From Pyrinomonadaceae bacterium (lineage in GTDB: Bacteria > Acidobacteriota > Blastocatellia > Pyrinomonadales > Pyrinomonadaceae), in NCBI GenBank assembly GCA_036009045.1, contig DASYML010000035.1:1066-65065 (forward strand): DNA of 64,000 nucleotides, in the 5' to 3' direction. Of this stretch, positions 1 through 58,393 are shown one piece after another. A program made the position numbers and the translations under genes. The notes under the pieces were generated by a model. That model had not been told where the DNA came from. It worked only from the letters and a program-made list of their open reading frames with translations, and did not search any database. Each line of letters begins with the position of its first letter. The stretch's first letter is position 1.

Positions 1-2
1 GT

Positions 3-59
3 GGCTTTGCACAAATAGTGCTTCTTGCACAAAAAGTCAACGGTCTGCACAAAAAGTCT
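3..59. repeat. Left end of the element: terminal 13-mer plus three direct TGCACAAA(AAGT) motifs
   Basis: Terminal 13-mer at 3-15. TGCACAAA cores at 8-15, 26-33 and 46-53. Positions 44-59 are the reverse complement of 4640-4655. Confidence 0.7.
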
Positions 60-1400
60 ATTTGCGTTTTGGACGCTCTTTTTTCTTAGTCCTGAATTTG
101 AGAAGGTCTTTATGACGGTGTTCGAGGATGTATGAAAGATGCTGATGAGACGTTTGTAGTAACCGTGCTGCATTGGTAATGCTGCCGCCCGTGTTGATGA
201 GAGATTGCTTATCAAGTCATGCTCATAACGTCGTAGCTCTTTGAGAAGTGGCAGCCTTGTCGAGAGCGATTGCACTTCTTCAAAACGCCCGCCTAGCTCT
301 CGCACTATAACCAGCGCGGCCTCTCCCGCCCGATTCATCGCTCCTGTCTGCTCCGATATTTCAATGGCGTGTAACAAGGTGAAGCGGGCTTGCTCGTAAT
401 GCGTCAGGCGTGCGAGAGCCTTACCGCGAGTTATCAAGGCTTCCGCCAATAATGCTTGATGCCCGCCCGCTTCCAGCGCGATGGCAGAGGATTTCGCGGC
501 CTTCTCAGCTTCTATATTGCGCTTCTGCGCGAGAAAGACGCGAGCGCGAGTCTCATCTATTCGCGCCGTATGCATTCGATCTTTAAGGCTCTCAGCCAAG
601 CGGCGCGCACGGTCCAAGCGTCTGTACGCCTCTTTGTATTTACTAGCGCGATAGAGCAGAATTCCTAGATTGTTTTCGACGTGTGAGAGATAACGCTTGT
701 GTCCGGCTTCCTCAAAATGAAAACTGGCGGCCTCATACTCGACAAAGGCACGGTCAAAGTAATCTTCCTTTTGCTCTTTGGCAGCCAGTGTTTCAAAGAT
801 AATGGCAAGCTGGTTATGATAACTGCCCTTCAAAACGTGGCTGTTTATCTTTTGGAATAAGGGTGCGGTATCTGTCAGAATACGCAGGGCTTCGCTATAA
901 CATCCTGCGCCAGATTCGACAATACCAGCGCGCAATATGGCCTTAGCCTTTAACTCGTTGTCTGTTGTGAGTCTTGCCAGTACACTTCGCAGGATGATAC
1001 GGGCATCGTCATATGCTCCCGTTCGCCAGTAGCATAGAGCCAATTCGGTCTGCGCCTCTAATATCTTCCGTTCATAACGAAGAGACTCAAAGATAGAAAT
1101 ACTTTGACTCAAGAGATTCTTCGCTACCTCCTGAGCATTAGTAATCTGTTGAGTGCTGCCAATCCAGCCTGTGAGGACTCCTGCACGCAAAAGAACTTCT
1201 CCTGCTGTCTCTTGCTCTAGTCCTTCAATCTTCGGTTGCTCGCCTATGCGCTGCCATAGCTCGCCCATTACTTCACGCGCAGCTTCATGTTCTCCCGCAT
1301 CTTCATACTCTCTGGCAAGCTGGCATCGTAGCTCCGCTTTTTGATTCGGGCTGAGGCTCTTATTTTCCAGTTGACGCAGAAGTGAGGCCGATAAGTTCAT
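58..1400 (-). pseudogene. TPR-like repeat protein with C-terminal Fis-type HTH, interrupted by a 1-nt frameshift (or sequencing error)
   Basis: Minus-strand ORF from ATG 1400 (AAAGG about 10 nt upstream; alternative ATG 1409) reads helical TPR-like repeats. Near the run gccgccc (184-190) the frame must shift by one nt to continue as GGSITNAARLLQTSHQHLSYILEHRHKDLL..., which aligns with the C-terminus of the 11694-12311 paralog. Stop at 58-60. It is absent from the ORF track because the unshifted frame runs off the window edge. Confidence 0.75.
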
Positions 1401-1424
1401 GTGAGACATACCTTTCAAAGTGAG

Positions 1425-1528
1425 TGCAAAATATATTGCATAGACCGCCCGCCATATTAGGCACTACATCTTTGACTTGCAAGAAGTTTGCAAAGCTGGT
1501 CTAGTTTGCCCTTGCATAGTTCTATGCA
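1425..1528. promoter_or_regulatory. Divergent control region with TGCA-core dyads (putative operators)
   Basis: TGCAA-aatata-TTGCA at 1425-1440. TTGCAA at 1477-1482 and 1488-1493, 11 nt apart. TGCATA-gttc-TATGCA at 1513-1528. The first dyad type recurs at 12432-12447 and 12845-12860. Confidence 0.5.
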
Positions 1529-1553
1529 TACACCTCAAAAGGAGATAAAAGTA

Positions 1554-1757
1554 ATGAAACCTCTAACCCAACTTTGTGCGGCGGCAGTCTTGACGCTGGC
1601 TCTCGCCTTTTCAACATTCGCGGGCCATGCAGAGTGTCCAGGCGTAGTTGACCCACCGCCAGATACAACGTCCACCGCAACGGCTACAGGTGAAATATCG
1701 TGCGGCGGGTTACAGCTTGCCGTGAGTTTGATACAGAGCGTGCTCTCGCTTTCCTGA
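1554..1757 (+). CDS. Small secreted peptide precursor (67 aa, two Cys in the mature part)
   Basis: ATG 1554 lies 9 nt after GGAG (1541-1544). N-terminus MKPLTQLCAAAVLTLALAFSTFAGHA looks like a Sec signal peptide with an AxA-type site. The track ORF start at 1488 is an upstream TTG. Confidence 0.6.
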   Translation: MKPLTQLCAAAVLTLALAFSTFAGHAECPGVVDPPPDTTSTATATGEISCGGLQLAVSLIQSVLSLS

Positions 1758-1965
1758 GTATAAGCACAACCAAGACCTTAAAGGCTGCTTGCACTTCACA
1801 GGCGGCATGGGTGATGTGTGCTTTGAACTTCACAGACCCAAAACTCGTATTTAATAGACGATGCAGACCTAACATTCTCACTCATTTTGAACATCCCAAA
1901 TAGTATGCTAAGTAGCTGTGCTTTCAAGCATTTAGCTGTTGTTTTATCGTGCAAGCGGGTGTATC

Positions 1966-3300
1966 ATGCAGACTGGTTTTAGACATAAAAAACGGGCCTT
2001 GCCATGTGCTGATAACACACAGCAAGACCTCTTCGACCACAGCGTGACTGCACACACTGTAGAAGCAACTGCATTGTGCGACTGTCATGCCCTGAACGCA
2101 AGGAGCATGATGGATTCAAGACAGCTAAAAGGTCTGCAAATCGCAGCCTCATCCAAAATTCAACAAATTGGCGATACATGGTCCGTTCCCTCGCAACGTA
2201 CTGGCAAGCGTTACACCGTCCGCTATACTCCTGAGCATCAGACCTGTACCTGCGCCGATTACGAAACTCATCACCAGAAGTGCAAGCATATTTATGCTGT
2301 TGAGCGCATCCTTTATCCTCAACAAATCATAGAGACTCCCGCGCCTATCAAGAGGCCGACGTATAAGCAGGAGTGGACCGAATATAATCTCGCGCAGACG
2401 AATGAGAAAGCACACTTTCAAGCCCTGCTCTATTCGCTTTGTGATGGTATAGAGGAACGCGAACAGACAATGGGATGCCCGCGCTTGCCTCTTGCAAATA
2501 TGGTCTTTGCTGCCGCCCTGAAAGTCTATTGCGGATTTTCCGGTAGGCGCACCACATCCGATCTGAGAGAGGCACAGCAACGCGGCTATCTGGCCTGCAC
2601 TCCGCATTTCAACTCAATCTCTAACTATCTGGATGCCGAATGGCTGACAGCTTACTTGCAGGCTCTCATCACGGAAAGCAGTATGCCTCTGAGAACCGTT
2701 GAGACAGCTTTCGCCGTTGATAGCTCTGGCTTCTCTACAGGCCGTTATGAGCGATGGCTACATGCCAAGTATGGCAAGGCGCAGGTGATTGATAAGCAAG
2801 GATGGATAAAGCTGCATTTGATGTGCGGAGTCACAACCAACATTGTGACCAGTTGCATAGTGACTGACAAGCACGCGGGAGACAGCCCGAAGTTTAAGCC
2901 TCTCGTCAATGCAACGGCTGAGAACTTTGTGATGAATGAAGTGTCGGCAGACAAGGCATACTCTAGCCGCGATAATCTCAAATTGGTCCAGCGTAAAGCG
3001 GCGATGCCATATATTGATTTCAAAGCGGGTACGAATCCTGAGAGGATGAAAGATGCGACGTGGACACGTCTTTATCACTTCTATGCTTACAATCAAGAAT
3101 GGTTTTATCAGCACTATCACAAGCGGAGTAATGTTGAGAGCACCTTTTCAATGATTAAGGCGAAGTTCGGCGGTAGTCTCCGCAGCAAGACGTATCAGGC
3201 GCAGATGAATGAAGCGTTGTGTAAAGTGCTCTGTCATAATCTTTGTTGTGTAATTCAATCCACATACGAGCTAGGGATTGACCCTACTTTCTGGGAGTGA
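1966..3300 (+). CDS. DDE transposase (IS4/IS5-superfamily-like) with N-terminal SWIM-type zinc finger
   Basis: CTCADYETHHQKCKHIYAV matches the CxC..CxH SWIM pattern. DDE-like blocks: AVDSSGF, VSADKAYSS and RSNVESTFSMIKAKFGG. ATG at 1966 inside the track ORF that starts at TTG 1939. Confidence 0.85.
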   Translation: MQTGFRHKKRALPCADNTQQDLFDHSVTAHTVEATALCDCHALNARSMMDSRQLKGLQIAASSKIQQIGDTWSVPSQRTGKRYTVRYTPEHQTCTCADYETHHQKCKHIYAVERILYPQQIIETPAPIKRPTYKQEWTEYNLAQTNEKAHFQALLYSLCDGIEEREQTMGCPRLPLANMVFAAALKVYCGFSGRRTTSDLREAQQRGYLACTPHFNSISNYLDAEWLTAYLQALITESSMPLRTVETAFAVDSSGFSTGRYERWLHAKYGKAQVIDKQGWIKLHLMCGVTTNIVTSCIVTDKHAGDSPKFKPLVNATAENFVMNEVSADKAYSSRDNLKLVQRKAAMPYIDFKAGTNPERMKDATWTRLYHFYAYNQEWFYQHYHKRSNVESTFSMIKAKFGGSLRSKTYQAQMNEALCKVLCHNLCCVIQSTYELGIDPTFWE

Positions 3301-4579
3301 GAAAGGTTGTGCCCTTGATTTTTGCCTCTTCCCAGTCAACATCTAAATCAATTGAAGATGGAGGCTGCCTCATAGCCTCCATTGTCACCCGTAAGAAGCA
3401 AGTAGAATCTAGTCGCTTCACATATCGAGCCGGGATATCCACTTCGTAAGAATACCAATATTGCTCTGTCATCCTTCCCGCTAGAACTTCATGCCTAACA
3501 AGCTCCTCAATTCCTAAAAGAGGGATTAAAGACGTTTTTGTTTTTGGCATCCCCTTTTCTTCTTCCCTCTTAGTTTTCCTAACGAGCGAGGCTTCCAGCT
3601 TCTTTACGAGAACATTAGCTAAAGCATTATTCTCAAGTTGCATTCTAAGGTGAGCAGTTATATGCCACTCATCACTTTCAGACTGTTCTACGCCCACCAT
3701 GACAGGAACATTCCAATGCCGATTTATACGAACTTCGCTTTGGTGATCCGTATTGATTATAAGTTTTAGTTTTTTAAGTTCTTCTAATTGAGCTTTAAGT
3801 TTTTCCTTTTCCTTTTTGCTTTCCTTAACGGATTCATGTATCTCTTCCATATCATGGCTAACAAGTTCTCCTGTTCTATTAAATGGGGGGTAAGCAGTAA
3901 TTTTATGTTGAGTACCGAAAGCATCAACTATTGTTAATGTAGTTATCCCTTCCTGAATCTTTGTGGTGTCAAGGGCGACTTCAGCTAATACAAATCGTAA
4001 CCAACCTTCTCGGCCATTACCTTCAGTAAGGGCAATATGCCTCTGATGACCCAAGCCTGGTAGCTCATCAAGCACAGGCTCGATTTTAGAAGCGGGGAGG
4101 CCCAATATAACTTGGTGTCTCTGTTCACGTTTCAAGCGTAAGTCGCCATCTATTGGGGTCTCTTCTGCATAATATTCACCTTCATCTGTATTAACCATCA
4201 AAGCATATTTTTTAATTGTGGTTTGCTTTGGCCGTGTATTCACTAGATAGACTTTTATAGTGATATACAAATCAGTAAGCACAGGAACCTTTGAAAGCGC
4301 TGCGGTCGGTTGAAAATAAACCTCTAGAATTTCACCTGTGATTTCGGGGCGTGCGTTCTTAGCCTTCTCATCAACCAACTCACGTTGTTTTATAATCCAT
4401 GCGATTACGGCTGAAATAAAGAAGCAAGTCCATCCCAATAATCGAAATAAAGGCTTGGGGTCGGTATGCTCTGGTTGGTAGTACCCTACCACCTCTCGGA
4501 TGAGGGAAAAGCTGCCGCTCATGAGTGCCACCCAAATTGGCGCAATCTTGAGCCAACCCCAATATCCTTTATTGACCAT
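3284..4579 (-). CDS. Membrane-anchored protein of unknown family (2 N-terminal TM helices, two beta-rich domains separated by a Lys/Glu coiled coil)
   Basis: 431-aa ORF in AT-rich DNA. Hydrophobic segments WLKIAPIWVALMSGSFSLI and LLGWTCFFISAVIAWII. Central KESKKEKEKLKAQLEELKKLK. The 3' end overlaps the transposase 3' end by 17 nt. Confidence 0.6.
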   Translation of the reverse strand: MVNKGYWGWLKIAPIWVALMSGSFSLIREVVGYYQPEHTDPKPLFRLLGWTCFFISAVIAWIIKQRELVDEKAKNARPEITGEILEVYFQPTAALSKVPVLTDLYITIKVYLVNTRPKQTTIKKYALMVNTDEGEYYAEETPIDGDLRLKREQRHQVILGLPASKIEPVLDELPGLGHQRHIALTEGNGREGWLRFVLAEVALDTTKIQEGITTLTIVDAFGTQHKITAYPPFNRTGELVSHDMEEIHESVKESKKEKEKLKAQLEELKKLKLIINTDHQSEVRINRHWNVPVMVGVEQSESDEWHITAHLRMQLENNALANVLVKKLEASLVRKTKREEEKGMPKTKTSLIPLLGIEELVRHEVLAGRMTEQYWYSYEVDIPARYVKRLDSTCFLRVTMEAMRQPPSSIDLDVDWEEAKIKGTTFLTPRK

Positions 4580-4639
4580 GCCGCAAGCCTATCAGAATTT
4601 GGACTTTCAAAAATCACTTTTTTAAGCCTCCACGCAGAG

Positions 4640-4707
4640 AGACTTTTTGTGCAGAATTTCCCCCTGCACAAAAAGTAGAAAAATTTACATGGTTTTTGTG
4701 CAAAGCC
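4640..4707. repeat. Right end of the element: terminal 13-mer plus three TGCACAAA motifs (two inverted, one direct)
   Basis: 4640-4655 agactttttgtgcaga. 4664-4676 ctgcacaaaaagt. 4695-4707 tttgtgcaaagcc. Confidence 0.7.
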
Positions 4708-4714
4708 GTTCGCC

Positions 4715-6256
4715 GTGTGGATGCCGCTGGTCCTGGAATCCCTCTTGCTCTTCGCTCGCGTGCGAAGTTGGCGTCGTGCGGGCTGGCTCGGCTGCGCGTT
4801 TCTCATGAACGCGTTGACGTGTATCACCTGGTTTATTTTGACGCTCATCCCGTTGACACTGACGGGCGTCTTATTGCTGGTCCAGTATCGCTGCGGGCGG
4901 GACAAGGCTTTCTGGCTGCGTGGCGGGTTGGCTCTCGCGCTCGCCTCGCTTTTCATGCTCTCTTTTTTTTGGCCCTATTATAGAGTCTCAAGGACTCAAG
5001 GCTTCGTGAGAAACGCGCAGGAGACGGCGATGTATTCCGCGCGGCTGGGAAACTTTCTGGTCGCGGACGACAACAACAAGTTGTGGGCGGGGTTGGGCGC
5101 AGGGACTCCCAGCAATTCCGAAACGATGCTCTTCCCAGGCTTCCTTCCGGTTTTGTTTGCGCTGGCGGCGCTCCTGCTCGGCGCGCCGGGACGAAGGCTG
5201 GCGCGCGCCTACGCGTGGACGCTTCCTTACGGCTCTTGGAAGAGAGGGCCGCTCATACTGCTGGACGTGCTCGCCGTCCTCTCAATGATAGTGGCGTTGT
5301 TGACGTTGGGTTACGGCGTTTTCGCGCCCGCGCTTTTCGGCGTCCGGCTCTTCAAGGCGAAGACTCCGGCGAATGCCCTCATCATTTGCGCCCTTCTCAT
5401 CTCATTGCGTTGCGGTGCGACTTACCTGATGCACTCTCGCGCTGGAAAAGAGAGACGCCCCGGCAAGTCTGCTCAAATGAAGTTGTCGTCATGGATGCTC
5501 ATCACGGACGCGGTCTGGACCATTATAGGATTCATGGGAGCGTTGGGGATGAATTTCTATTTTCACCGCGCGCTCTTTGAATACGTTCCATTGTTTCGGA
5601 GCATGCGTGTGCCCGCGCGTTGGGCCATGATCTGCTACCTGGGTCTGGCGCTGCTGGCCGGGCTGGGAGCACAGTACATAGCGGAAAATTTAGCGCGTTG
5701 GCTTTCGCGCGCACGCCTTCGTAGAAGTAGCTGGTTAATTTATACAATCATCGCGCTCGCCATTTTGTTTGAACAACGCGTCGCCCCCCTGAATGTCTTG
5801 AAGGGAGAGGCGGACCCGGACCAGTTGACGCTGCGACTCAAGGCGACGCAGATGCGCGGCGGGATTGTGGAACTCCCCGCCGGTGGGCCAAAGGGGAATT
5901 ACCTTTACGTGTTGCGCGCGGCGGACCACGCGCGCCCGCTCATTACCGCGACGAACAGTTTCGTCCCACCTCTCGAAGCGAAGATTGAATCTCTGACTCG
6001 GATGAAACCAATCCCGTCGAGCCTCCTCGATCTTCTCGAATCAATTCCCGCGTCTTATGTGGTGGTCCACTACGACTCTCTTCCTGCCGCCGACCGCGAC
6101 GCAATCGAGGCCATGCTCGCAAACGGCAGAGAGACGGGCAGGCTGCGTTTCATCAAGAGCTACACGGACGCAGGGCGTGCGGACCTCTACGCGTTGACGA
6201 AGATAGAGCCTCAGTCAGAGAGCGAAGAGCCGACGCCACAGTTGCCCTCTTTATGA
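4715..6256 (+). CDS. Polytopic membrane protein with soluble C-terminal domain, apparently 5'-truncated by the insertion
   Basis: High-GC ORF that begins 8 nt after the element end. It starts directly in a series of TM helices, with no convincing start or SD. Family not recognised; possibly glycosyltransferase-like. Confidence 0.55.
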   Translation: MWMPLVLESLLLFARVRSWRRAGWLGCAFLMNALTCITWFILTLIPLTLTGVLLLVQYRCGRDKAFWLRGGLALALASLFMLSFFWPYYRVSRTQGFVRNAQETAMYSARLGNFLVADDNNKLWAGLGAGTPSNSETMLFPGFLPVLFALAALLLGAPGRRLARAYAWTLPYGSWKRGPLILLDVLAVLSMIVALLTLGYGVFAPALFGVRLFKAKTPANALIICALLISLRCGATYLMHSRAGKERRPGKSAQMKLSSWMLITDAVWTIIGFMGALGMNFYFHRALFEYVPLFRSMRVPARWAMICYLGLALLAGLGAQYIAENLARWLSRARLRRSSWLIYTIIALAILFEQRVAPLNVLKGEADPDQLTLRLKATQMRGGIVELPAGGPKGNYLYVLRAADHARPLITATNSFVPPLEAKIESLTRMKPIPSSLLDLLESIPASYVVVHYDSLPAADRDAIEAMLANGRETGRLRFIKSYTDAGRADLYALTKIEPQSESEEPTPQLPSL

Positions 6257-7246: not shown

Positions 7247-10200
7247 TCAAGCACGCCCGGTCCTTCCGGCGAGGGTGGCGACGACGGTCGTCAACTCCGT
7301 CGGCTCGACGGGCTTCGGGACGTGTATCTGAAATCCGGCGTTGAGTGCGCGGATGCGATCCTCTGTTCTGGCGTAGGCCGTCAACGCGACCGCCGGTATC
7401 TGCTTGCCGAGTTGCGACTCCATTGAGCGCACCCTGCCAATCAATTCGTAGCCGTCCTGATCCGGCATGCCTATGTCGCTCACAAGCACGTCCGGCCTGT
7501 GGCGCATGAGTTCCGCGAGGGCTTCCGCAGCGGATGACACGGCAATCACTTTCGCTCCGCACTGTTCGAGGATGGCTATCAACATGTCGCGCGTGTCCTG
7601 CTCGTCGTCAACCACCAGAATGCTCAAGCCTTCCAGATTCTGCTCGCCGCTATAGGGCACGACTCCGCCAACCGTCGGATGCACGCGCTTGAGTTCGCCG
7701 GAGTTACCATCCGAATTGCGAAAGACCATCAAAGGAAGTTGGACCGTAAACTTCGCCCCGCGCCCCTCTCCCTCGCTGAAGACCTCCACGGTCCCGCCAT
7801 GTAGCTCAACCAGATGCCGCACGATGGCGAGGCCCAGCCCAAGCCCGCCATGCACTCTCGTCATCGTCGGGTCCGCCTGCCGGAAACGGTCGAAGACGTA
7901 GGGCAGAAACTCTTGAGAGATGCCCTGTCCCGTGTCGCTCACGGATAACTCGACGTGCGAATTGACGCGTTCTAAACGGACCTCTACGTGTCCCTCTTTG
8001 GGCGTAAACTTGATGGCGTTGGCGAGCAGATTCCAGACGACCTGCTGCAAGCGGTCCGCGTCGCCCGCGATGTGCCCGGTCCTCGTGTCAAGGACCATGT
8101 GAAGCTTGATGCCCCTGGCGTCAGCCGCAGGACGCACGGCATCCACTGCGGCCTTGATGACCGGCTCAAACTCAATCGCGCGCACGTCCAGCCGCAGCTT
8201 GCCGGTAATCACGCGCGAGACATCGAGCAGGTCTTCGATGAGTTGGCGCTGCGTCTCCGCGTTGCGCATGATAATCTCGCGCGCTCTCTTGGCCGTCTCC
8301 TCGTCAAGCTGGTCGTCGTGCAACATTCTGCTCCAACCCAGCACGGCTGTCAGAGGCGTCCGCAGTTCGTGAGAGACGACCGCGAGAAATTCATCCTTCA
8401 TGCGGCTCGCCAACTGCGCCTCACGATAGAGCCTGGAATTTTCCACGGCCATCGCGCCGCGACGCGCGAGGTCTTCCGCGAAGGTCAGGTCCGCCTGCTC
8501 GTAGCGGCGACCCGATTCCGAATACACGAAGGTAATCACGCCGAGCACGCGTTCGTGGACCAACAGGGGAACGACCATCGCGGACTTGAGGCCCAACTCG
8601 CGCAGGATTCTCAAGTGCTCCGCATCGCGCGCGCCCATCATGAGCAAAGAGTCCGGTATCTCCCCGTGGATTTCCGATTGGCCCGTCCGAATGACTTTCG
8701 CCAGACCTTCAGTGTCGCTCATCTGCTGCGGGTAACGTTGTTCGAGTTCCCTCGCCAACTCCACCTTCGAGGCATCCTGATGGGCCACCGCGAGACGTTT
8801 AATCGAGCGGTCCTCGTCGAGTATGTCCACGGCGCACCAGTCCGCGAGGTGCGGGATCATCAAACGAGCGACGCTCGCCAGCGTGATTTCATAGTCCAGA
8901 GATGAAGCCAGCACTTCGCTCGCTTCGGCCAGAAAGGCAGAGCGCCGCTCCCCCAGTTCGGCCTGCGCGCGGGCCTTCTGCGCGGCGTCGAAGAGCCGCG
9001 CGTTGTCCACGGAGACGGCTGCCTGCGCCGCCAGTCCCTCAACGATGCGCTGCTCACGTTCCTTAAAGACACCGGCCTTCGGGTGGCCGAAGAAAAGCCC
9101 GCCGATGACTTCGCCCGAACGCGAGACGACGGGCACGGCCAGATAGCTCGTGACAGGCAGATGGCCCTCCGGCATGCCGTGATACGGCGACCACTTGCCA
9201 TAACGCGGGTCCTGCTTGACATCTTCAATGCGAATCGTTCCCTCGCCGCGAAAAGTTGGCCCAAAGAGGTCCGTCGCGCGCGGCATGGGGAAATGCTCGA
9301 ACGCCTCGCGCGGCACGCCCGACAGCGTGTAGAGCATGTACCAGCCGCCGCTCTGGTCCAGCACGTTATAGAAGAAGGAACCGAAGCGAGCGCCGCTCAA
9401 CTCCGTCGCGGCATCCGTCACGGCCTGGACCACTTGATGAACGTCCAGTTCCGCCGCGATGGTCTGCCCGACGCGGTTGACGGTCTCTATGGTCTGCGTC
9501 TGCTCGCGCAAATCCTCTTCGATCATCATGCGCCTGGTGATGTCCTCTGCGATGCCCGCCACGCGATAGACTTTTCCCGATTCATCCCTGATGGGAAAGG
9601 CTCTGGCCCAGATCCAGCGCGTCGAACCATCCGGGCGGATGATTCTATACTCGACGTTGTATGTGCCGGATTCCTGCTGGACCAATTCGTCATCTACACG
9701 TTCTCTATCATCCGGGTGAACGGCATCCATGAAAGACCTTGGCACAGCGTAGAGGCTCTCGCGCGAGCGGCCCCAAATCTCTTCATAGGCGGGGCTGACG
9801 TAAATCATCTCTTTGGTGTTGGCATCGGAAATCCAAAAGACCTCCTGTAGATTCTCCGCCAACTGGCGAAAGCGTCTCTCGGATTCCTGCAACTCCGCCT
9901 GAGCACGCTTGGCCCCCGTGATGTCTCGCGCGATGGCCGAAGCGCCTATGACCTCGCCCTCCCCGTTCTTGATGGGAGAGACCGAGAGGGAAATATCCAG
10001 ATGCCCGCCGTCTTTCTTGACACGGATGGTCTCGTAATGCTCTATGCGCTCGCCGCGCCTGAGTCTGTCGAGTATCCTGGGCAGTTCGTCAGGACGCCCC
10101 TGCGGGATTAACAGGTTGATGGGATGGCCGATGGTCTCCGCCGCCGTATAGCCGTAGAGCCGCTCCGCGCCTGAGTTCCAACTCGTGATAATGCCGTCCA

Positions 10201-10636
10201 GAGTCTTCCCTATAATCGCGTCGTCAGAGGATTCGACGATAGCGGCCAGCGCGAAATGCGCCCACTTCTCCTCCTGCAATGCCCTTCCGGCCTCCTCCGC
10301 GCGATGGCGTGCGCGGTGCATCGCCTCGCTCAGAAAAGCGCTCGTGAGACCGACCAGGAGATAGAGCGCCAACCCTGTGAGATACGGGACGCTGGTCAGC
10401 GAGTTTTGCGGCGCGACGAACAAAAAGACTGCGCCGAGGGCTCCGAGCAAGAGGGCCAGCACTGCCGGGCGCAAGCCCCCATACCAGGCCGTGAAGACGA
10501 CCGCGACGACATACATGACATAAGGTTGATTGTTTCCCAGGAAGGGCTGAAGCAGCATCCGCAGCAGCGTGGCGAGCAGGATGCTTGCGACCGCAACCCC
10601 GTAGTACAGCATGGTAGAGCGTGAAACCTTCAGCAT
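7247..10636 (-). CDS. Hybrid sensor histidine kinase (TM sensor, 2 PAS, 2 GAF, HisKA, HATPase_c, receiver)
   Basis: VVSHELRTPLTAV H-box. GLGLAIVRHLVELHGG ATP-binding block. C-terminal ILVVDDEQD...SDIGMPDQDG...PKP receiver. PAS and GAF blocks read by eye. Likely start is MLKVS at 10636; the track ORF extends to 10756. Confidence 0.9.
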   Translation of the reverse strand: MLKVSRSTMLYYGVAVASILLATLLRMLLQPFLGNNQPYVMYVVAVVFTAWYGGLRPAVLALLLGALGAVFLFVAPQNSLTSVPYLTGLALYLLVGLTSAFLSEAMHRARHRAEEAGRALQEEKWAHFALAAIVESSDDAIIGKTLDGIITSWNSGAERLYGYTAAETIGHPINLLIPQGRPDELPRILDRLRRGERIEHYETIRVKKDGGHLDISLSVSPIKNGEGEVIGASAIARDITGAKRAQAELQESERRFRQLAENLQEVFWISDANTKEMIYVSPAYEEIWGRSRESLYAVPRSFMDAVHPDDRERVDDELVQQESGTYNVEYRIIRPDGSTRWIWARAFPIRDESGKVYRVAGIAEDITRRMMIEEDLREQTQTIETVNRVGQTIAAELDVHQVVQAVTDAATELSGARFGSFFYNVLDQSGGWYMLYTLSGVPREAFEHFPMPRATDLFGPTFRGEGTIRIEDVKQDPRYGKWSPYHGMPEGHLPVTSYLAVPVVSRSGEVIGGLFFGHPKAGVFKEREQRIVEGLAAQAAVSVDNARLFDAAQKARAQAELGERRSAFLAEASEVLASSLDYEITLASVARLMIPHLADWCAVDILDEDRSIKRLAVAHQDASKVELARELEQRYPQQMSDTEGLAKVIRTGQSEIHGEIPDSLLMMGARDAEHLRILRELGLKSAMVVPLLVHERVLGVITFVYSESGRRYEQADLTFAEDLARRGAMAVENSRLYREAQLASRMKDEFLAVVSHELRTPLTAVLGWSRMLHDDQLDEETAKRAREIIMRNAETQRQLIEDLLDVSRVITGKLRLDVRAIEFEPVIKAAVDAVRPAADARGIKLHMVLDTRTGHIAGDADRLQQVVWNLLANAIKFTPKEGHVEVRLERVNSHVELSVSDTGQGISQEFLPYVFDRFRQADPTMTRVHGGLGLGLAIVRHLVELHGGTVEVFSEGEGRGAKFTVQLPLMVFRNSDGNSGELKRVHPTVGGVVPYSGEQNLEGLSILVVDDEQDTRDMLIAILEQCGAKVIAVSSAAEALAELMRHRPDVLVSDIGMPDQDGYELIGRVRSMESQLGKQIPAVALTAYARTEDRIRALNAGFQIHVPKPVEPTELTTVVATLAGRTGRA

Positions 10637-10903
10637 GTCCTGCTTTCTGCGTAACTTGGTCGAGCGCAGATGGCGATGGAACACTGTCAGAGCAGTGTGC
10701 GCTTTAGCGTCCGGGGGCAAGACGCTCCTGATTGGCCCATCAATTATGGTGAGCAAACAATAGCATGAAACTACAACCGATGAAAAACGGAATCTTCGCC
10801 GCGTGGCAGTTCAGGATAAAAGTGGAGCGGGAGACTCTTGATTGGGTGAGGGATAAGCCGTCAACAAGTGAGTCAATATGAGTTGAGCGAATACGAAAGG
10901 CGC

Positions 10904-11001
10904 ATTCACCACCGCAGACACAGAGCGCACAGAGTCAGCACAGAGGCTTGAATGCTTATCTCTGTGCTTAATCTGTGCGCTCTGTGTCTGCGGTGGTGAA
11001 T
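10904..11001. repeat. Family-A palindromic element (CACAGAG core), copy 1
   Basis: ATTCACCACCGCAGACACAGAGCGCACAGAG...CTCTGTGCGCTCTGTGTCTGCGGTGGTGAAT. Near-identical cores at 30320-30417, 47175-47275 and 58297-58393. The flanks are also conserved. Confidence 0.9.
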
Positions 11002-11249
11002 CACAAGGCCCCTGACACTCAAGGCCAATCTAAATCGCTACCCGAAAAGATTTTCTCTTGACTTCCCTTTTCGTTTGGCCCAGGCTCTCTCTCGGAAAGA
11101 GACAGGCAGGCATAGTCAAAAGACACGGGAGAGGCCTAGAGAGCCGTCAACATCCCTAAGCCCCCCTCCGTGTCCCCTGCGCCCGCGCCGGTGCCTTAAC
11201 ACCGGCCAGGCACACCCGAAAAAATCCGGCGTCCTCCGCACCCCGCGTC

Positions 11250-11693: not shown

Positions 11694-12406
11694 CTAGCGT
11701 TTGCGTGAAGTCGGAGGCGTTCTCTTTGGCAAAAGCTTCTTATGCCGTCCCTTGAGAATCGAGCCGAGCGACTGGTGCGTTAGCCCCAACCTTTTCGCCG
11801 CACGCGTCAACAGCCCGCGCTCCTCCTTCAAAGCCTGCTCGATGAGCCGCCCCTCGTAAGCCTGCACCGCATCGTGCAAGTAGAAATCCTGCTCCCCCAC
11901 CTGCGCCCCGAACAATCTACGCATGACGATTCGCGCGCACGCGCGCAGGCGCGCGAAGTCCTCCACATCCTCCGTCTTCGCCAGCAACCTGTCCGCGCGC
12001 CTGTACGCGTGATAGGCTTCGACTTCAGAGAGACCCTCCTTCCCATGCTCCTCAATCATCGCCAGCACCGCCAGCGCCGCACTGTCCACAGACCCCGCGT
12101 TCTCCGCGATATTTATCGCTCGCTGAAAATTACGGATTGACAGTTCATGCTCACCCAGCCTCGCGTGAACCGTCGCCTTCAACGTCAGCGCATTCGCCAG
12201 CAACCCCTGCTCCCCGCCCCCCTCAAGCGTATTGACAGCCTCGCCAATAATCTGCATGGCTTCTTTATAACGCCCTTCCGCCAGGAGAACTCTCGCACGC
12301 GTCTCATCCATCTGTGCAAGCAGACCCGCATCCTTCAGAACGCGGGTGTATCCCTTGTGAGATCAGGATTATTCGGTGGCCTTGATTTTGCGCCGTTTAA
12401 TCTCAT
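11694..12406 (-). pseudogene. Internally deleted paralog of the TPR/Fis-HTH regulator
   Basis: The 205-aa ORF 11694-12311 aligns with the C-terminal third of the 58-1400 gene (DETRARV..., YE..LI, TRAA..L..THQ.L..IL..RHK.LL). The conserved start context CTCACATGA sits at 12403-12411 (ATG 12406) but leads to a 23-codon ORF in another frame. Confidence 0.65.
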
Positions 12407-12430
12407 GTGAGGATGGCCTCTTTTTTGGGT

Positions 12431-12448
12431 ATGCAACGTTTGTTGCAT
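12431..12448. promoter_or_regulatory. ATGCAAC-gttt-GTTGCAT dyad (putative operator), 25 nt upstream of the remnant regulator ATG
   Basis: TGCAA-N6-TTGCA at 12432-12447. Same motif and same spacing to the start codon as 1425-1440. Confidence 0.5.
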
Positions 12449-12454
12449 AGACAT

Positions 12455-12487
12455 CAAAACCGCCACACCTTTATGCAGATGTGGCGG
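12455..12487 (-). terminator. Putative intrinsic terminator (minus strand)
   Basis: CCGCCACA (12460-12467) pairs with TGTGGCGG (12480-12487). On the minus strand the hairpin is followed by TTTTG. Confidence 0.5.
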
Positions 12488-12525
12488 CTGAGACATTTAC
12501 TTAACCTCATAAAAGGAAAAGACCG

Positions 12526-12721
12526 ATGCGTAAAACTGTTCTCATCTCCTGACTGGCAATCGGCACCAGCCCGTGCAGTACGCGTGGGCGAAATTCAGCA
12601 TGGAAACGTTGGCCCAACACCACCTCCCACGAGTGGCGAGAGACAAGACGGACAAGCGATTCGGTTAACGGCAATGACGGTTGCGTTTGAATTGTTGCGA
12701 GGCTTGCTGTCGCTGGCCTAA
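12526..12721 (+). pseudogene. Decayed homolog of the secreted-peptide gene
   Basis: RBS context ACCTCAtAAAAGGA...ATG resembles 1531-1556. The ATG 12526 frame stops after 8 codons. A shifted frame ends ...VGPTPPPTSGERQDGQAIRLTAMTVAFELLRGLLSLA*, which resembles the C-terminus of the 1554-1757 peptide (about 10 of 37 identical by hand alignment). Confidence 0.4.
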
Positions 12722-12954: not shown

Positions 12955-13326
12955 TCAGCGGCGAAGATTGACGAGCGCTTCGACCGTTTGCACGAGAGAG
13001 ACGAAATCTCCGGGCTTGTTGAGATAAGCCTGCGCGCCTGTCGTTTTGCTGCGGTCGTGGCTGGAAAGATTCTCCGAGAGAAAGAGGACGGGCGTGTGCG
13101 GGTCCATCAGGCGCAGGCGCTCACAGAGCTCTATGCTCTGGCAATCTATGTAGCCGTCATTGAGTATGTAAAGGTCGAAGCGTTCTTCGGCGACTATGCG
13201 CAGGCAGTCGGCACAGGTCCGCACGATCTTGACTTCATATCCCTGCTGTCTGAGCATGAAGTTGATCAGGTCCGCTACGTCTTCGTGTTCTTCAACGCAT
13301 AAGATTCTTATCTTCTTCGGCTGCAT
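12955..13326 (-). CDS. Stand-alone receiver-domain protein, atypical (Asn at the expected phospho-Asp position)
   Basis: KIRILCVEEHED...FDLYILNDGY...VLFLSE...LNKP. Start MQPKK at 13326 chosen by analogy with the paralog; the track ORF extends to 13419. Confidence 0.75.
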   Translation of the reverse strand: MQPKKIRILCVEEHEDVADLINFMLRQQGYEVKIVRTCADCLRIVAEERFDLYILNDGYIDCQSIELCERLRLMDPHTPVLFLSENLSSHDRSKTTGAQAYLNKPGDFVSLVQTVEALVNLRR

Positions 13327-13443
13327 TCCGACACCCAGTGAGCGAATCCGGCGAGGGACGGCATCATCCGACGATCTTGGGGGATGGATTAAATTACTGA
13401 AACTTGAGGCGGTAGTCAATAGGTCAATTCGCCATCGCCGCGC

Positions 13444-13854
13444 TCAGCGTCTATCGAGGTCTGTCCGCGTGGCGTCGGTCGAGTAGGGTTTGAGCAGCGC
13501 CTTGATGGTTTGCGCGACCTGCAAAATATCTCCGGGCTTGGTCAGGTAAGCCTGCGCTCCGGCTTCCAGTCCTTCACGGATGTCTTTCTCGAAGCAGGCG
13601 GATGAGAAGAAGAGGATGGGGGTTTGCGGGTCCAGCGCACGCAGTTTCTTACAGAGTTCGATGCTGGTCCCGTCAGGGTAGCTGTCATCTAGCAGGTAGA
13701 GGTCGAAACGCTCGTGGCTCGCCAGTTCAAGACACTGGCCGATGCTGTTTCCGGTCTTCACCTCATGTCCCTGCCGTTCGAGCAGGAGGGTGATGAGAGA
13801 ACAGGTATCCTCGTGAGTTTCGGCGCATAAGATACGCCTTTTGTCTGGTGGCAT
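13444..13854 (-). CDS. Stand-alone receiver-domain protein (paralog of the preceding gene)
   Basis: RRILCAETHED...FDLYLLDDSYPDG...ILFFSS...LTKP. Confidence 0.8.
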   Translation of the reverse strand: MPPDKRRILCAETHEDTCSLITLLLERQGHEVKTGNSIGQCLELASHERFDLYLLDDSYPDGTSIELCKKLRALDPQTPILFFSSACFEKDIREGLEAGAQAYLTKPGDILQVAQTIKALLKPYSTDATRTDLDRR

Positions 13855-30204: not shown

Positions 30205-30319
30205 GTTCAAGAGCAGCATAAGTGATACGAGTTGCGCCGCGCAAGCTGAGCCTTATTCCGGTAGTAATTCAAGATAAAAGTTGAGAGAGACTCCTCATTG
30301 AGTGATAGAGAAACTGTGT

Positions 30320-30417
30320 ATTCACCACCGCAGACACAGAGGACTCAGAGTCAGCACAGAGGCTTGCATGCTTAACTCTGTGCTGACTCTGTGCGCTCTG
30401 TGTCTGCGGTGGTGAAT
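30320..30417. repeat. Family-A palindromic element, copy 2
   Basis: Same ATTCACCACCGCAGACACAGAG...GGTGAAT core. The left flank GATAAAAGTtGAGaGaGAGACTC also matches copy 1. Confidence 0.9.
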
Positions 30418-58296: not shown

Positions 58297-58393
58297 ATTT
58301 ACCACAGAGACACAGAGCGCACAGAGTTTGCACAGAGTTAAGCATTCAACTCTCTGTGCTGACTCTGTGCGCTCTGTGTCTGCGGTGGTGAAT
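58297..58393. repeat. Family-A palindromic element, copy 4
   Basis: ATTTACCACAGAGACACAGAGCGCACAGAG...CTCTGTGCGCTCTGTGTCTGCGGTGGTGAAT. Confidence 0.9.

Follow-up and report, generated by a model that had tools for sequence, protein, structure and literature searches.

We analyzed a 64,000-nt window (the whole stretch examined here) of contig DASYML010000035.1 from a Pyrinomonadaceae bacterium (GenBank assembly GCA_036009045.1) and found that two divergently transcribed genes at 58–1757, one for a tetratricopeptide repeat (TPR) regulator with a probable C-terminal Fis-type helix-turn-helix (HTH) and one for an exported peptide of 67 amino acids (aa), may constitute a self-contained, autoregulated signalling cassette of a peptide and its TPR receptor. 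We regard this reading as an even call. An earlier note, made from the letters of the window, had proposed the pair as a candidate peptide-sensing cassette on a mobile element. In the mechanism that we propose, a regulator dimer would bind TTGCAA dyads in the shared control region and repress the genes of both regulator and peptide. The peptide would be exported and cleaved by signal peptidase I, and a fragment of it would then be sensed by the TPR superhelix, altering DNA binding and completing an autoregulatory loop. The likeliest ligand would be a repeated G-[DEQ]-[IM]-x-x-G unit, the first copy of which starts at the signal-peptidase cut, and the hydrophobic tail of the peptide may act as a processing or sorting handle. 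The conditions that the earlier note had named for refuting its proposal were checked, and none of them spoke against it.

The association of the two genes was surveyed by scanning one genome per species, which gave 446 relatives of the regulator; we fetched the best 80 loci and ran a profile hidden Markov model (HMM) of the peptide on their six-frame open reading frames (ORFs). A divergent peptide gene was observed ~150 nt upstream of the regulator in 78 of these best 80 loci, and the other two have less than 190 nt of upstream sequence. All 78 of the 78 informative loci, from Pyrinomonadaceae/Acidobacteriota genomes, therefore have a divergent gene for an exported peptide, which bears out the earlier suggestion that the two genes form a unit. 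Additional peptide matches always adjoin additional regulator copies, and the copies per genome number at least seven in SMAG_U3200 and at least four in OY970256. By ORF clustering and Pfam analysis of the neighbours (137 on the peptide side, 138 on the other side) we found no conserved third gene: the peptide-side (left) neighbours contain 170 Pfam families and those on the other (right) side 184. The commonest neighbours are transposases and integrases, which are mildly enriched and occur at a handful of loci only. Most loci have housekeeping neighbours, the more distant pairs lie among housekeeping genes, and some pairs sit within integrative elements with an integrase and a primase-helicase. 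The regulator and the peptide gene form an obligate unit, inherited together and multiplied into many paralogues per genome. At one locus (L002, 14409–21368) the cassette lies at the margin of an integrative element (integrase, DnaB-like helicase, HTH_17), with a type III-B CRISPR-Cas cluster (Cas6, Cmr2-Cmr5, RAMP) 3 kb away. Phage carriage of the arbitrium kind was considered and rejected, as viral contigs gave only two weak partial relatives and the family is thus not phage-borne; both of these distant relatives keep the peptide gene (HMM E 9e-11 and 2e-9).

The peptide gene is not restricted to regulators of the window type. A profile search of 1.84 billion representative proteins returned 701 receptor clusters (50% identity) at E <= 1e-30, and we tallied the output domains of the top 150 cluster representatives, which share a TPR module of ~385 aa. 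This module is joined to HTH_8 only in 88 of the 150 clusters, to a sigma-54 AAA+ domain (mostly together with HTH_8) in 28, to HTH_8 and a receiver domain in 12, to a histidine kinase and a receiver domain in 2 and to a TIR domain in 2, while 18 are fragments or other forms. The sigma-54 AAA+ domain was found in the relatives P0147, P0162, P0173 and P0192, and in P0138 only the AAA lid and the HTH remain. A divergent peptide gene is present at both informative loci of the sigma-54 form (L087 and L095; HMM E 8e-8 and 1.3e-9), at the single informative locus of the receiver form (L091; E 6e-13) and at one of two loci of the kinase form (L090; E 2e-6), the other kinase form, of 1,549 aa, having none. 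In L090 the kinase-form protein has no DNA-binding domain, and the peptide beside it (223–465) contains five near-identical tandem units DGVISTG (DDGVISTGV/L), the clearest multi-copy repeat precursor of the family. By eye, we saw no sigma-54 promoter in the intergenic region of a sigma-54-type relative. Because the peptide gene stays with the TPR module through these changes of output, especially beside a kinase without a DNA-binding domain, it seems better explained as a partner of the TPR sensor than as a target of the HTH. The gene associations argue that the TPR domain may sense the peptide, and the receptor-plus-peptide logic put forward in the earlier note has gained support from the sigma-54, receiver and histidine-kinase fusions.

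The same observations bear on the possibility that the peptide is a regulated output, the TPR domain sensing some other cue (a metabolite, or a host or phage protein) and switching a small exported effector such as a membrane-active or surface peptide. The dyads at the peptide promoter are consistent with such a role, as are a C-terminal half that conserves composition more than sequence and a tail that, with 67% AVLIMFW in its last 12 residues, could be membrane-active. However, a mere target gene is not expected to track a sensor domain through output changes, the peptide gene also lies beside the kinase fusion that lacks a DNA-binding domain and beside the sigma-54 and receiver fusions, and no immunity or partner gene is conserved. 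We therefore consider this explanation unlikely.

Both TIR fusions (L089 451–2175, P0141; L092 2720–4363, P0252) have no peptide gene near them, and the neighbours of the former include an integrase, a ParA-like ATPase and an HTH_17 gene. The TIR domain is a typical immune or NADase effector, and its fusion to the same TPR module in relatives would fit an addiction or anti-phage module, in which the exported hydrophobic peptide is a toxin held by the repressor and released upon TPR-mediated detection of infection or of element loss. So would the two-gene organization with many paralogues per genome, the location in variable regions, transposons and integrative elements, and the type III-B CRISPR-Cas cluster adjoining one locus. 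Such a module is nevertheless very improbable: the tail of 12–17 residues is short for a membrane-spanning toxin, the pairings with kinase, sigma-54 and receiver forms are unlike a toxin-repressor pair, and most loci have housekeeping neighbours. A known defence system was likewise rejected, since a PADLOC search of the regulator, the peptide and two neighbouring ORFs found no match.

The small ORF is a genuine coding gene under selection. A search with the single peptide sequence found 12 relatives, several of them on contigs equal in length to contigs with regulator matches, and the peptide profile matched 302 database clusters, all labelled hypothetical and with no Pfam domain. Differences by codon position amount to 853/553/1575, and a Shine-Dalgarno (SD) sequence is found in 84 of the 85 family members, with an ATG start in 75. 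The SD sequence and the Sec signal peptide stand as the earlier note had described them, and the ORF is conserved. The product is laid out as a 23-aa Sec-type signal peptide, a G-x-[I/M/A]-x-C-P-G motif at the new N-terminus, PPP with a Thr-rich linker, GEISCGG and a hydrophobic tail; the corresponding stretches of the window peptide are CPGVVDPPP, a Thr-rich segment, GEISCGG and the hydrophobic end LQLAVSLIQSVLSLS. Because the signal peptide is 23 aa long in 80 of the 85 members, with AxA, VxA or TxA at positions -3/-1, cleavage after ...STFA is more likely than after ...AGHA, 3 residues later. The mature part would then comprise 44 aa instead of the 41 first proposed, and the two Cys, the PPP and the hydrophobic tail attributed to it are all present; the second Cys is unconserved across the family. 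A lipoprotein was rejected, as the residues preceding the conserved Cys are E, D, P or N and do not form a lipobox, and so was a PEP-CTERM-type sorting signal, as no basic cluster follows the tail.

At the predicted new N-terminus we observed a recurring motif, G-[DEQ..]-[IMLV]-x-x-[GP], which begins 0–2 residues from the cut in 73 of 85 peptides. It occurs in 119 copies compared to 9.2 +/- 3.0 in shuffled sequences, with 1–5 copies per precursor and two or three copies in 32 peptides. PPPP and a Ser/Thr-rich linker follow, and then the hydrophobic tail, whose last 12 residues have an AVLIMFW content of 67% compared to 24% in the remaining mature part. For peptides whose receptors are at least 85% identical, the identity is 85% in the signal peptide, 84% in the first nine mature residues and 56% in the remaining mature part, and the C-terminal half is better conserved in composition than in sequence. 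In a subfamily of 83-aa peptides the tail ATEIALNLLQSVLSLF is constant and the motif is variable at its x positions (GEMDTG, GQIDTG, GEMEIG, GDIQTG). Paralogues from the same genome share their tail type more than cross-genome pairs do at equal receptor divergence (0.37 versus 0.27), yet their motif differs. In both cases the variation would sit where a specificity determinant is expected, and the motif is more likely to be the part that bears specificity, with the tail as a common handle. Receptors of different clades were also seen with near-identical peptide tails (LLILIESVLL.P) within one genome, in SMAG_U3204 (L008, L012, L025) and in SMAG_U8914 (L009, L027), and L027 and L028, which come from different genomes, have receptors that are 88% identical and peptide tails that are unrelated. 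The tail type seems to track the host genome rather than the receptor lineage.

The signal peptide, including the motif LRQxCA in its n-region, is the most conserved part of the peptide, and this would suit a cell-autonomous switch in which the precursor, before export, is bound through its signal peptide or tail by the TPR domain and Sec export then frees or changes the regulator, with no extracellular signalling, much as class II TPR chaperones of type III secretion (IpgC, SicA) link substrate secretion to transcription. No importer is linked to the cassette and the host is diderm, both in keeping with such a switch, and the pairing with the TPR module across outputs fits it equally well as it fits extracellular sensing. 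On the other hand, Sec export is normally fast and constitutive, so that the quantity measured would be obscure; repeated G-x-I-x-x-G units that vary among paralogues of one genome are easier to understand as diversified ligands; and LRQxCA weakens in distant family members that still have the pairing. We judge a switch of this kind to be quite unlikely.

The intergenic region supplies the candidate sites for the proposed loop. We compared 81 homologous intergenic regions of 126–217 nt (median 153) and found the same order of blocks throughout. Starting from the peptide side, the SD sequence is followed by a dyad, typically cTTGCAAa-N4-6-tTTGCAAg, by AATAGA/ACTAGA (reverse complement TCTATT/TCTAGT), by CCAGCTTTG and by the near-invariant CTTGCAAG. 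After a 17-nt spacer come a TAAGAT-like hexamer, a GC-rich block, a second dyad TTGCAA-N6-TTGCA, GAAAGG and the start codon of the regulator. TTGCAA occurs 2.09 times per region compared to 0.047 times in shuffled sequences (45-fold), and the combination of TTGCAA, 17-nt spacer and TAAGAT-like hexamer is present in 71 of the 81 regions. In six complete elements of the transposon family described below and in 89.6 kb of flanking sequence, no TTGCAA dyads were found outside the regulator-peptide gap. The dyads with a TGCA core and the two TTGCAA motifs reported earlier were all recovered in the window (Table 1). A -10-like hexamer stands 17 nt to either side of the central TTGCAA, and a TTGCAA-type dyad follows just downstream of each hexamer. 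From this layout the palindromic TTGCAA would serve as the -35 element of both divergent promoters, and the dyads would occupy repressor-like positions because they lie just downstream of each candidate -10. An Rfam search of the control region and of the gap between the peptide and transposase genes returned nothing relevant.

The regulator gene is split in the assembly, and the ORF list of the window contains no single ORF covering 58–1400. Its N-terminal frame (minus strand, frame 1) starts with an ATG at 1400, preceded 10 nt upstream by an AAAGG motif, reads MNLSASLL...RYEHDLI and stays open to the window edge, and the C-terminal frame (minus strand, frame 0) contains KQSLINTGGSITNAARLLQTSHQHLSYILEHRHKDLLKFRTKKKERPKRK and KQSLINTGGSITNAARLL...KRK* with its stop at 58–60. 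Adding one missing A in the A-run at 209–210 fuses both frames into a protein of 447 aa. This join is backed by the paralogue at 11694–12311 and by intact homologues that read through the site (...YEHDLIKQALI...). The window is 100% identical to the JGI metagenome contig Ga0372944_0000336, in which the gene is annotated as a 470-aa TPR protein. The frameshift is genuine or arose in assembly; with a correct base call, the window copy would encode a TPR protein that lacks the HTH. In Pfam, the corrected protein matched TPR_12 with E 2e-16 and 60.4 bits (cut-off 30.1), and HTH_8 with E 0.014 and 15.6 bits, under the cut-off of 22; HTH_8 (PF02954) is annotated in about half of its close homologues. 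The ~450-aa TPR regulator of the earlier note was thus recovered in length and fold, with the qualifications that the HTH of the window copy is sub-threshold and that the gene is frameshifted. There was no HTH_3 (XRE/Cro-type) match, and Pfam gave no sigma-54 AAA+ domain in the window regulator, and the receptors have no transmembrane segments. Relatives in the databases number in the thousands, the top one being 91% identical, and those with a named source are nearly all from Pyrinomonadaceae or Acidobacteriota.

An AlphaFold2 model of this 91%-identical homologue (P0001; pLDDT 91.6, pTM 0.81) is all-helical, with a small C-terminal domain appended to a TPR superhelix. When it was compared with the PDB by Foldseek, the top matches were the TPRs of LGN/Pins (LGN E 1e-7, TM-score up to 0.75) and designed TPRs, and Rap-Phr complexes appeared at E ~2e-5 with TM-scores of 0.5–0.63, no better than generic TPRs. 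A PDB profile search with the regulator ranked kinesin light chains and consensus or designed TPRs best and NprR (5dbk) below them, at only E 0.0044. Judged by model and profile, the receptor has a generic peptide-groove TPR fold and is not a detectable homologue of the RRNPP receptors discussed below. That LGN and the Rap proteins bind peptides in a groove speaks for the proposed sensing.

Several points weigh against a peptide signal sensed by the TPR receptor. The structural resemblance to Rap is a generic TPR resemblance, and NprR is reached in the profile search at the low significance given above. We infer the binding of the peptide by the TPR domain, its export and its re-entry, for which the outer membrane of a diderm host is an extra barrier; to our knowledge, no route of peptide re-import is known in Acidobacteriota, and among the neighbours no importer or processing gene is conserved with the cassette. 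The TIR-fused relatives and one kinase-fused relative do without the peptide gene. Unusually, conservation along the peptide peaks in the signal peptide, which might mean that the precursor and not the mature fragment counts, and the quick drift of the C-terminal half could reflect weak constraint instead of specificity. Finally, a generic consensus promoter scan did not list the proposed promoters, whose hexamers are weak and stand out by conservation only, and the repressor geometry is an inference from position.

The copy in the window is carried by an IS5-like transposon (Table 1), so that the mobile element suspected earlier can now be delimited more sharply than had been proposed, with a 9-bp target-site duplication. 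Its termini are inverted (GGCTTTGCACAA...TTGTGCAAAGCC), and the left copy of the duplicated GTTCGCCGT consists of the 7 bases preceding the window and positions 1–2 of the window. The insertion is recent. When 3–4707 and one copy of the duplication are deleted in silico, a 676-aa ORF for a polytopic membrane protein is restored. The GC content is 0.467 inside the element and 0.584 in the flanks (0.46–0.49 at positions 1–4000 compared to ~0.59 elsewhere). The regulator abuts one end of the transposon and reads outward. In Pfam, the transposase matched DDE_Tnp_1 (E 1e-19) and SWIM (E 1.2e-4); its top NCBIfam match, with 117 bits, is an IS5-family model with a cut-off of 140, and it stays below every NCBIfam insertion sequence (IS) cut-off and is therefore a divergent member of the IS4/IS5 type. 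The 431-aa passenger has no counterpart in NCBIfam or PADLOC and matches no Pfam family significantly.

Five more complete elements of 4.4–7.6 kb (L005, L006, L017, L020, L031) have the same termini and perfect 9-bp duplications. They are low in GC and vary in cargo, and each has its own subterminal repeats, 2–3 per end. The regulator and the peptide gene always occupy the same end, and at least four of the five contain a transposase homologue. In about 19–25 of 82 loci the stop codon of the regulator is followed by an end of the same type (2–3 subterminal repeats, ...GCAAAGCC), and in 15 of 82 a transposase homologue lies within 10 kb; loci with the end motif or the transposase belong mostly to the closest relatives. 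Because the distant pairs lie among housekeeping genes or in integrative elements, the cassette is older and more widespread than the transposon, of which it has become a constant passenger at one end in one clade. On the transposon, the peptide could serve as a gauge of the number of cells or copies that have the element.

Two further roles of the regulator were rejected. Control of the transposase is not supported, since the TTGCAA dyads are confined to the regulator-peptide gap and the transposase differs in place and orientation from one element to another. Binding to the transposon ends is not supported either, since the subterminal repeats differ (TGCACAAAAAGT, TTGCCCAAAAAG, TGCCCAACGG, TGCCCGACAAT) while the promoter dyads and the HTH are unchanged; the transposase is the likelier reader of the ends. 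Other features of the elements were observed as well. In L006 (11409–11480) and L008 (11400–11470) a second element of the same family begins exactly 9 nt past the first (GCAAAGCC, 9 nt, then GGCTTTGC/GCCTTGC), which suggests end-to-end insertion or a preference for sites beside an existing copy, and L004 and L014 have chimeric or nested ends with differing types of subterminal repeat. In the window, the gap from the peptide gene to the transposase gene contains, on its minus strand, a terminator-like hairpin with a 16-bp stem (1995–2029), and there is a promoter-like site on the same strand at 2408–2381; by analogy with RNA-OUT in IS10, the two could yield an antisense RNA across the transposase start. 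The stretch upstream of this start (1939–2106, translated ...QQDLFDHSV.HTV...) is conserved in L006.

The decayed second pair that the earlier note had placed at 11.7–12.7 kb was found again as a remnant of the regulator, a dyad and an interrupted peptide gene (Table 1). The relic regulator passes the Pfam cut-off for HTH_8 (E 5.5e-6, 26.4 bits) and matches TPR_12 with E 2.3e-7. Homology to the C-terminal part of the peptide (...PPP...LLRGLLSLA) resumes after the premature stop in another frame up to 12721, and the match to the peptide HMM is weak (E 0.36). The relic is flanked by two adjacent genes for stand-alone receiver domains (12955–13419 and 13444–13854, minus strand) and for a 1,169-aa hybrid PAS/GAF histidine kinase (7247–10756, minus strand), and the surroundings of both cassettes are rich in signalling genes. 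Elsewhere, an intergenic hairpin-forming repeat of ~100–120 nt recurs in copies that are 82–92% identical, at 10903–11002, 30298–30417 and 58297–58393 in the window and at ~3940, 7743 and 19351 in L086. It looks like a repetitive extragenic palindromic (REP) element or a miniature inverted-repeat transposable element (MITE), and it gave spurious matches to plant microRNAs in Rfam.

Table 1. Features of the cassette, its transposon and the relic second copy (window positions; empty cells, no entry)
Feature	Position	Strand	Description
IS5-like transposon	3–4707		4,705 bp; carries regulator, peptide gene, transposase and one 431-aa gene
Transposon end at regulator	3–60	plus	Terminal GGCTTTGC, then three direct subterminal TGCACAAAAAGTC repeats (8–20, 26–38, 46–58)
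Regulator gene	58–1400	minus	Cytoplasmic TPR sensor, 447 aa frame-corrected, probable C-terminal Fis-type HTH; 1-nt frameshift at 209–210 as assembled
Shared regulator/peptide control region	1401–1553		Same block order in 81 homologous intergenic regions
Dyad, regulator side	1426–1441		TGCAA-N6-TTGCA
Candidate -10 of regulator	1454–1459	minus	Reverse complement TAATAT
Central TTGCAA	1477–1482		Candidate -35 for both promoters
Second TTGCAA	1488–1493
Candidate -10 of peptide gene	1500–1505	plus	TCTAGT
Dyad, peptide side	1513–1528		TGCATA-N4-TATGCA
SD sequence of peptide gene	1541–1544	plus	GGAG, 9 nt upstream of the ATG
Small pro-peptide gene	1554–1757	plus	67 aa; ATG at 1554
Transposase gene	2107–3300	plus	N-terminal SWIM zinc finger and DDE_Tnp_1; open from 1939, likely start 2107
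Passenger gene	3284–4579	minus	431 aa; inside element
Other transposon end	4632–4707		Repeats 4641–4653 (-), 4665–4677 (+), ~4689–4701 (-); terminal GCAAAGCC
Target-site duplication, right copy	4708–4716	plus	GTTCGCCGT, perfect 9 bp
Interrupted host membrane-protein gene, C-terminal part	4715–6256	plus	N-terminal part at L086 7959–8465
Relic regulator	11694–12311	minus	Distant paralogue; C-terminal 205 aa (last TPRs and HTH_8); 31% identity to residues 281–445, E 3e-19
Relic control region and peptide gene	12404–12721	plus
Relic regulator start codon	12404–12406		Reverse complement
Relic dyad	12431–12448		ATGCAAC-N4-GTTGCAT; only one surviving
Relic peptide gene	ATG 12526	plus	Premature stop 12550–12552

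The cassette was compared with known systems, and the suspicion that its architecture is not a described one was upheld: Pfam, NCBIfam and PADLOC contain no model for the peptide, and the regulator gave only generic TPR/HTH_8 or sub-threshold matches. The closest functional match is the RRNPP(A) group (Rap-Phr, NprR-NprX, PlcR-PapR, PrgX, Rgg-SHP, AimR-AimP), in which a cytoplasmic TPR-type receptor likewise stands beside a small pro-peptide gene. As in PapR, Phr and AimP, the pro-peptide has an export signal; the divergent arrangement is that of many Rgg-SHP pairs; many paralogous cassettes per genome and frequent carriage by mobile elements are common to both; and the hydrophobic C-terminal tail recalls SHP and the enterococcal pheromones. 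In contrast to the N-terminal XRE-type HTH of RRNPP, however, the HTH of the cassette is C-terminal and of the Fis/NtrC type (HTH_8), there is no specific sequence homology, and the host is a diderm acidobacterium, whereas RRNPP is assigned to Firmicutes in the literature. Sigma-54 AAA+, receiver, kinase and TIR domains occur as further outputs fused to this sensor, the precursor holds 1–5 copies of the G-x-[IM]-x-x-G unit, and the carrier here is a DDE transposon and not a phage, a plasmid or an integrative and conjugative element (ICE). Because the type and position of the HTH, the sequence homology and the taxon all fail to agree, the cassette is not a member of RRNPP and is best likened to RRNPP logic built from unrelated parts. 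Two large RRNPP surveys describe RRNPP as Firmicutes systems, and in the paper library that we searched none links Acidobacteria with RRNPP-type systems.

Other known systems resemble single parts of the cassette. NtrC-family enhancer-binding proteins have a C-terminal HTH_8, which the relic copy and many homologues carry and for which the window protein gives a candidate match under the cut-off, and the 28 sigma-54 clusters among the top 150 include the full architecture of TPR, sigma-54 AAA+ and HTH_8. The window protein differs from them in having no AAA+ domain, so that it cannot activate sigma-54, and in the position of its dyads, which lie downstream of -10-like hexamers in the manner of a repressor and not at an upstream enhancer. 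The output domain and the relatives point to an origin among NtrC-type proteins, and because P0138 keeps only the AAA lid and the HTH, the 447-aa form resembles such a protein after loss of its ATPase. The TPR_12 repeats of LGN/Pins and kinesin light chain are the best matches in structure (LGN) and in sequence (kinesin light chain), and the window protein has their NLG-type helix-A motif (VENNLG). These TPRs bind extended peptides in their concave groove, long ones in the case of LGN/Pins; they are eukaryotic scaffolds without a DNA-binding output, and the similarity is at the level of the fold only. With IS5/IS4-type DDE elements the transposon shares the DDE_Tnp_1 transposase, terminal inverted repeats, the 9-bp target duplication (perfect in 6 elements) and variable passengers, and it differs by the SWIM zinc finger, by 2–3 element-specific subterminal repeats per end and by the regulator-peptide pair as a constant passenger at one end. 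The class II TPR chaperones of type III secretion (IpgC-MxiE, SicA-InvF) are proteins of ~150–170 aa without an HTH of their own that serve type III substrates and couple secretion to transcription. They resemble the cassette in being cytoplasmic TPR proteins of diderm bacteria whose regulatory state is tied to a secreted partner. The cassette differs in that its peptide bears a Sec signal and its TPR protein an output domain.

Peptide signalling through cytoplasmic TPR proteins has been treated as a trait of Firmicutes, and diderm bacteria are thought to use small molecules. The cassette could represent the first genetically encoded family of peptide pheromones that a diderm phylum (Acidobacteriota, mainly Pyrinomonadaceae) reads with cytoplasmic receptors, with an origin independent of RRNPP, one TPR sensor with interchangeable outputs (repressor HTH, sigma-54 activator, receiver, histidine kinase) and one clade that is the core passenger of a DDE transposon; we hold this to be a real possibility rather than the probable case. 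The parts of the cassette are short and can be synthesized (heptapeptide-like units, a 150-nt control region and a soluble receptor of 447 aa), the TTGCAA-dyad switch may serve as a regulatory part for Acidobacteriota, which are poor in genetic tools, and the modular outputs offer a natural experiment in the rewiring of one sensor. Mobile elements that sense their own prevalence have so far been phages (arbitrium) and ICEs and plasmids (Rap-Phr, PrgX), and a DDE transposon with its own cell-to-cell or copy-number channel would, if true, be a new case. As a large family (701 receptor clusters, 446 loci in species-representative genomes, up to 7 copies per genome) in the abundant but little-studied soil Acidobacteriota, these cassettes would widen the expected range of peptide communication.

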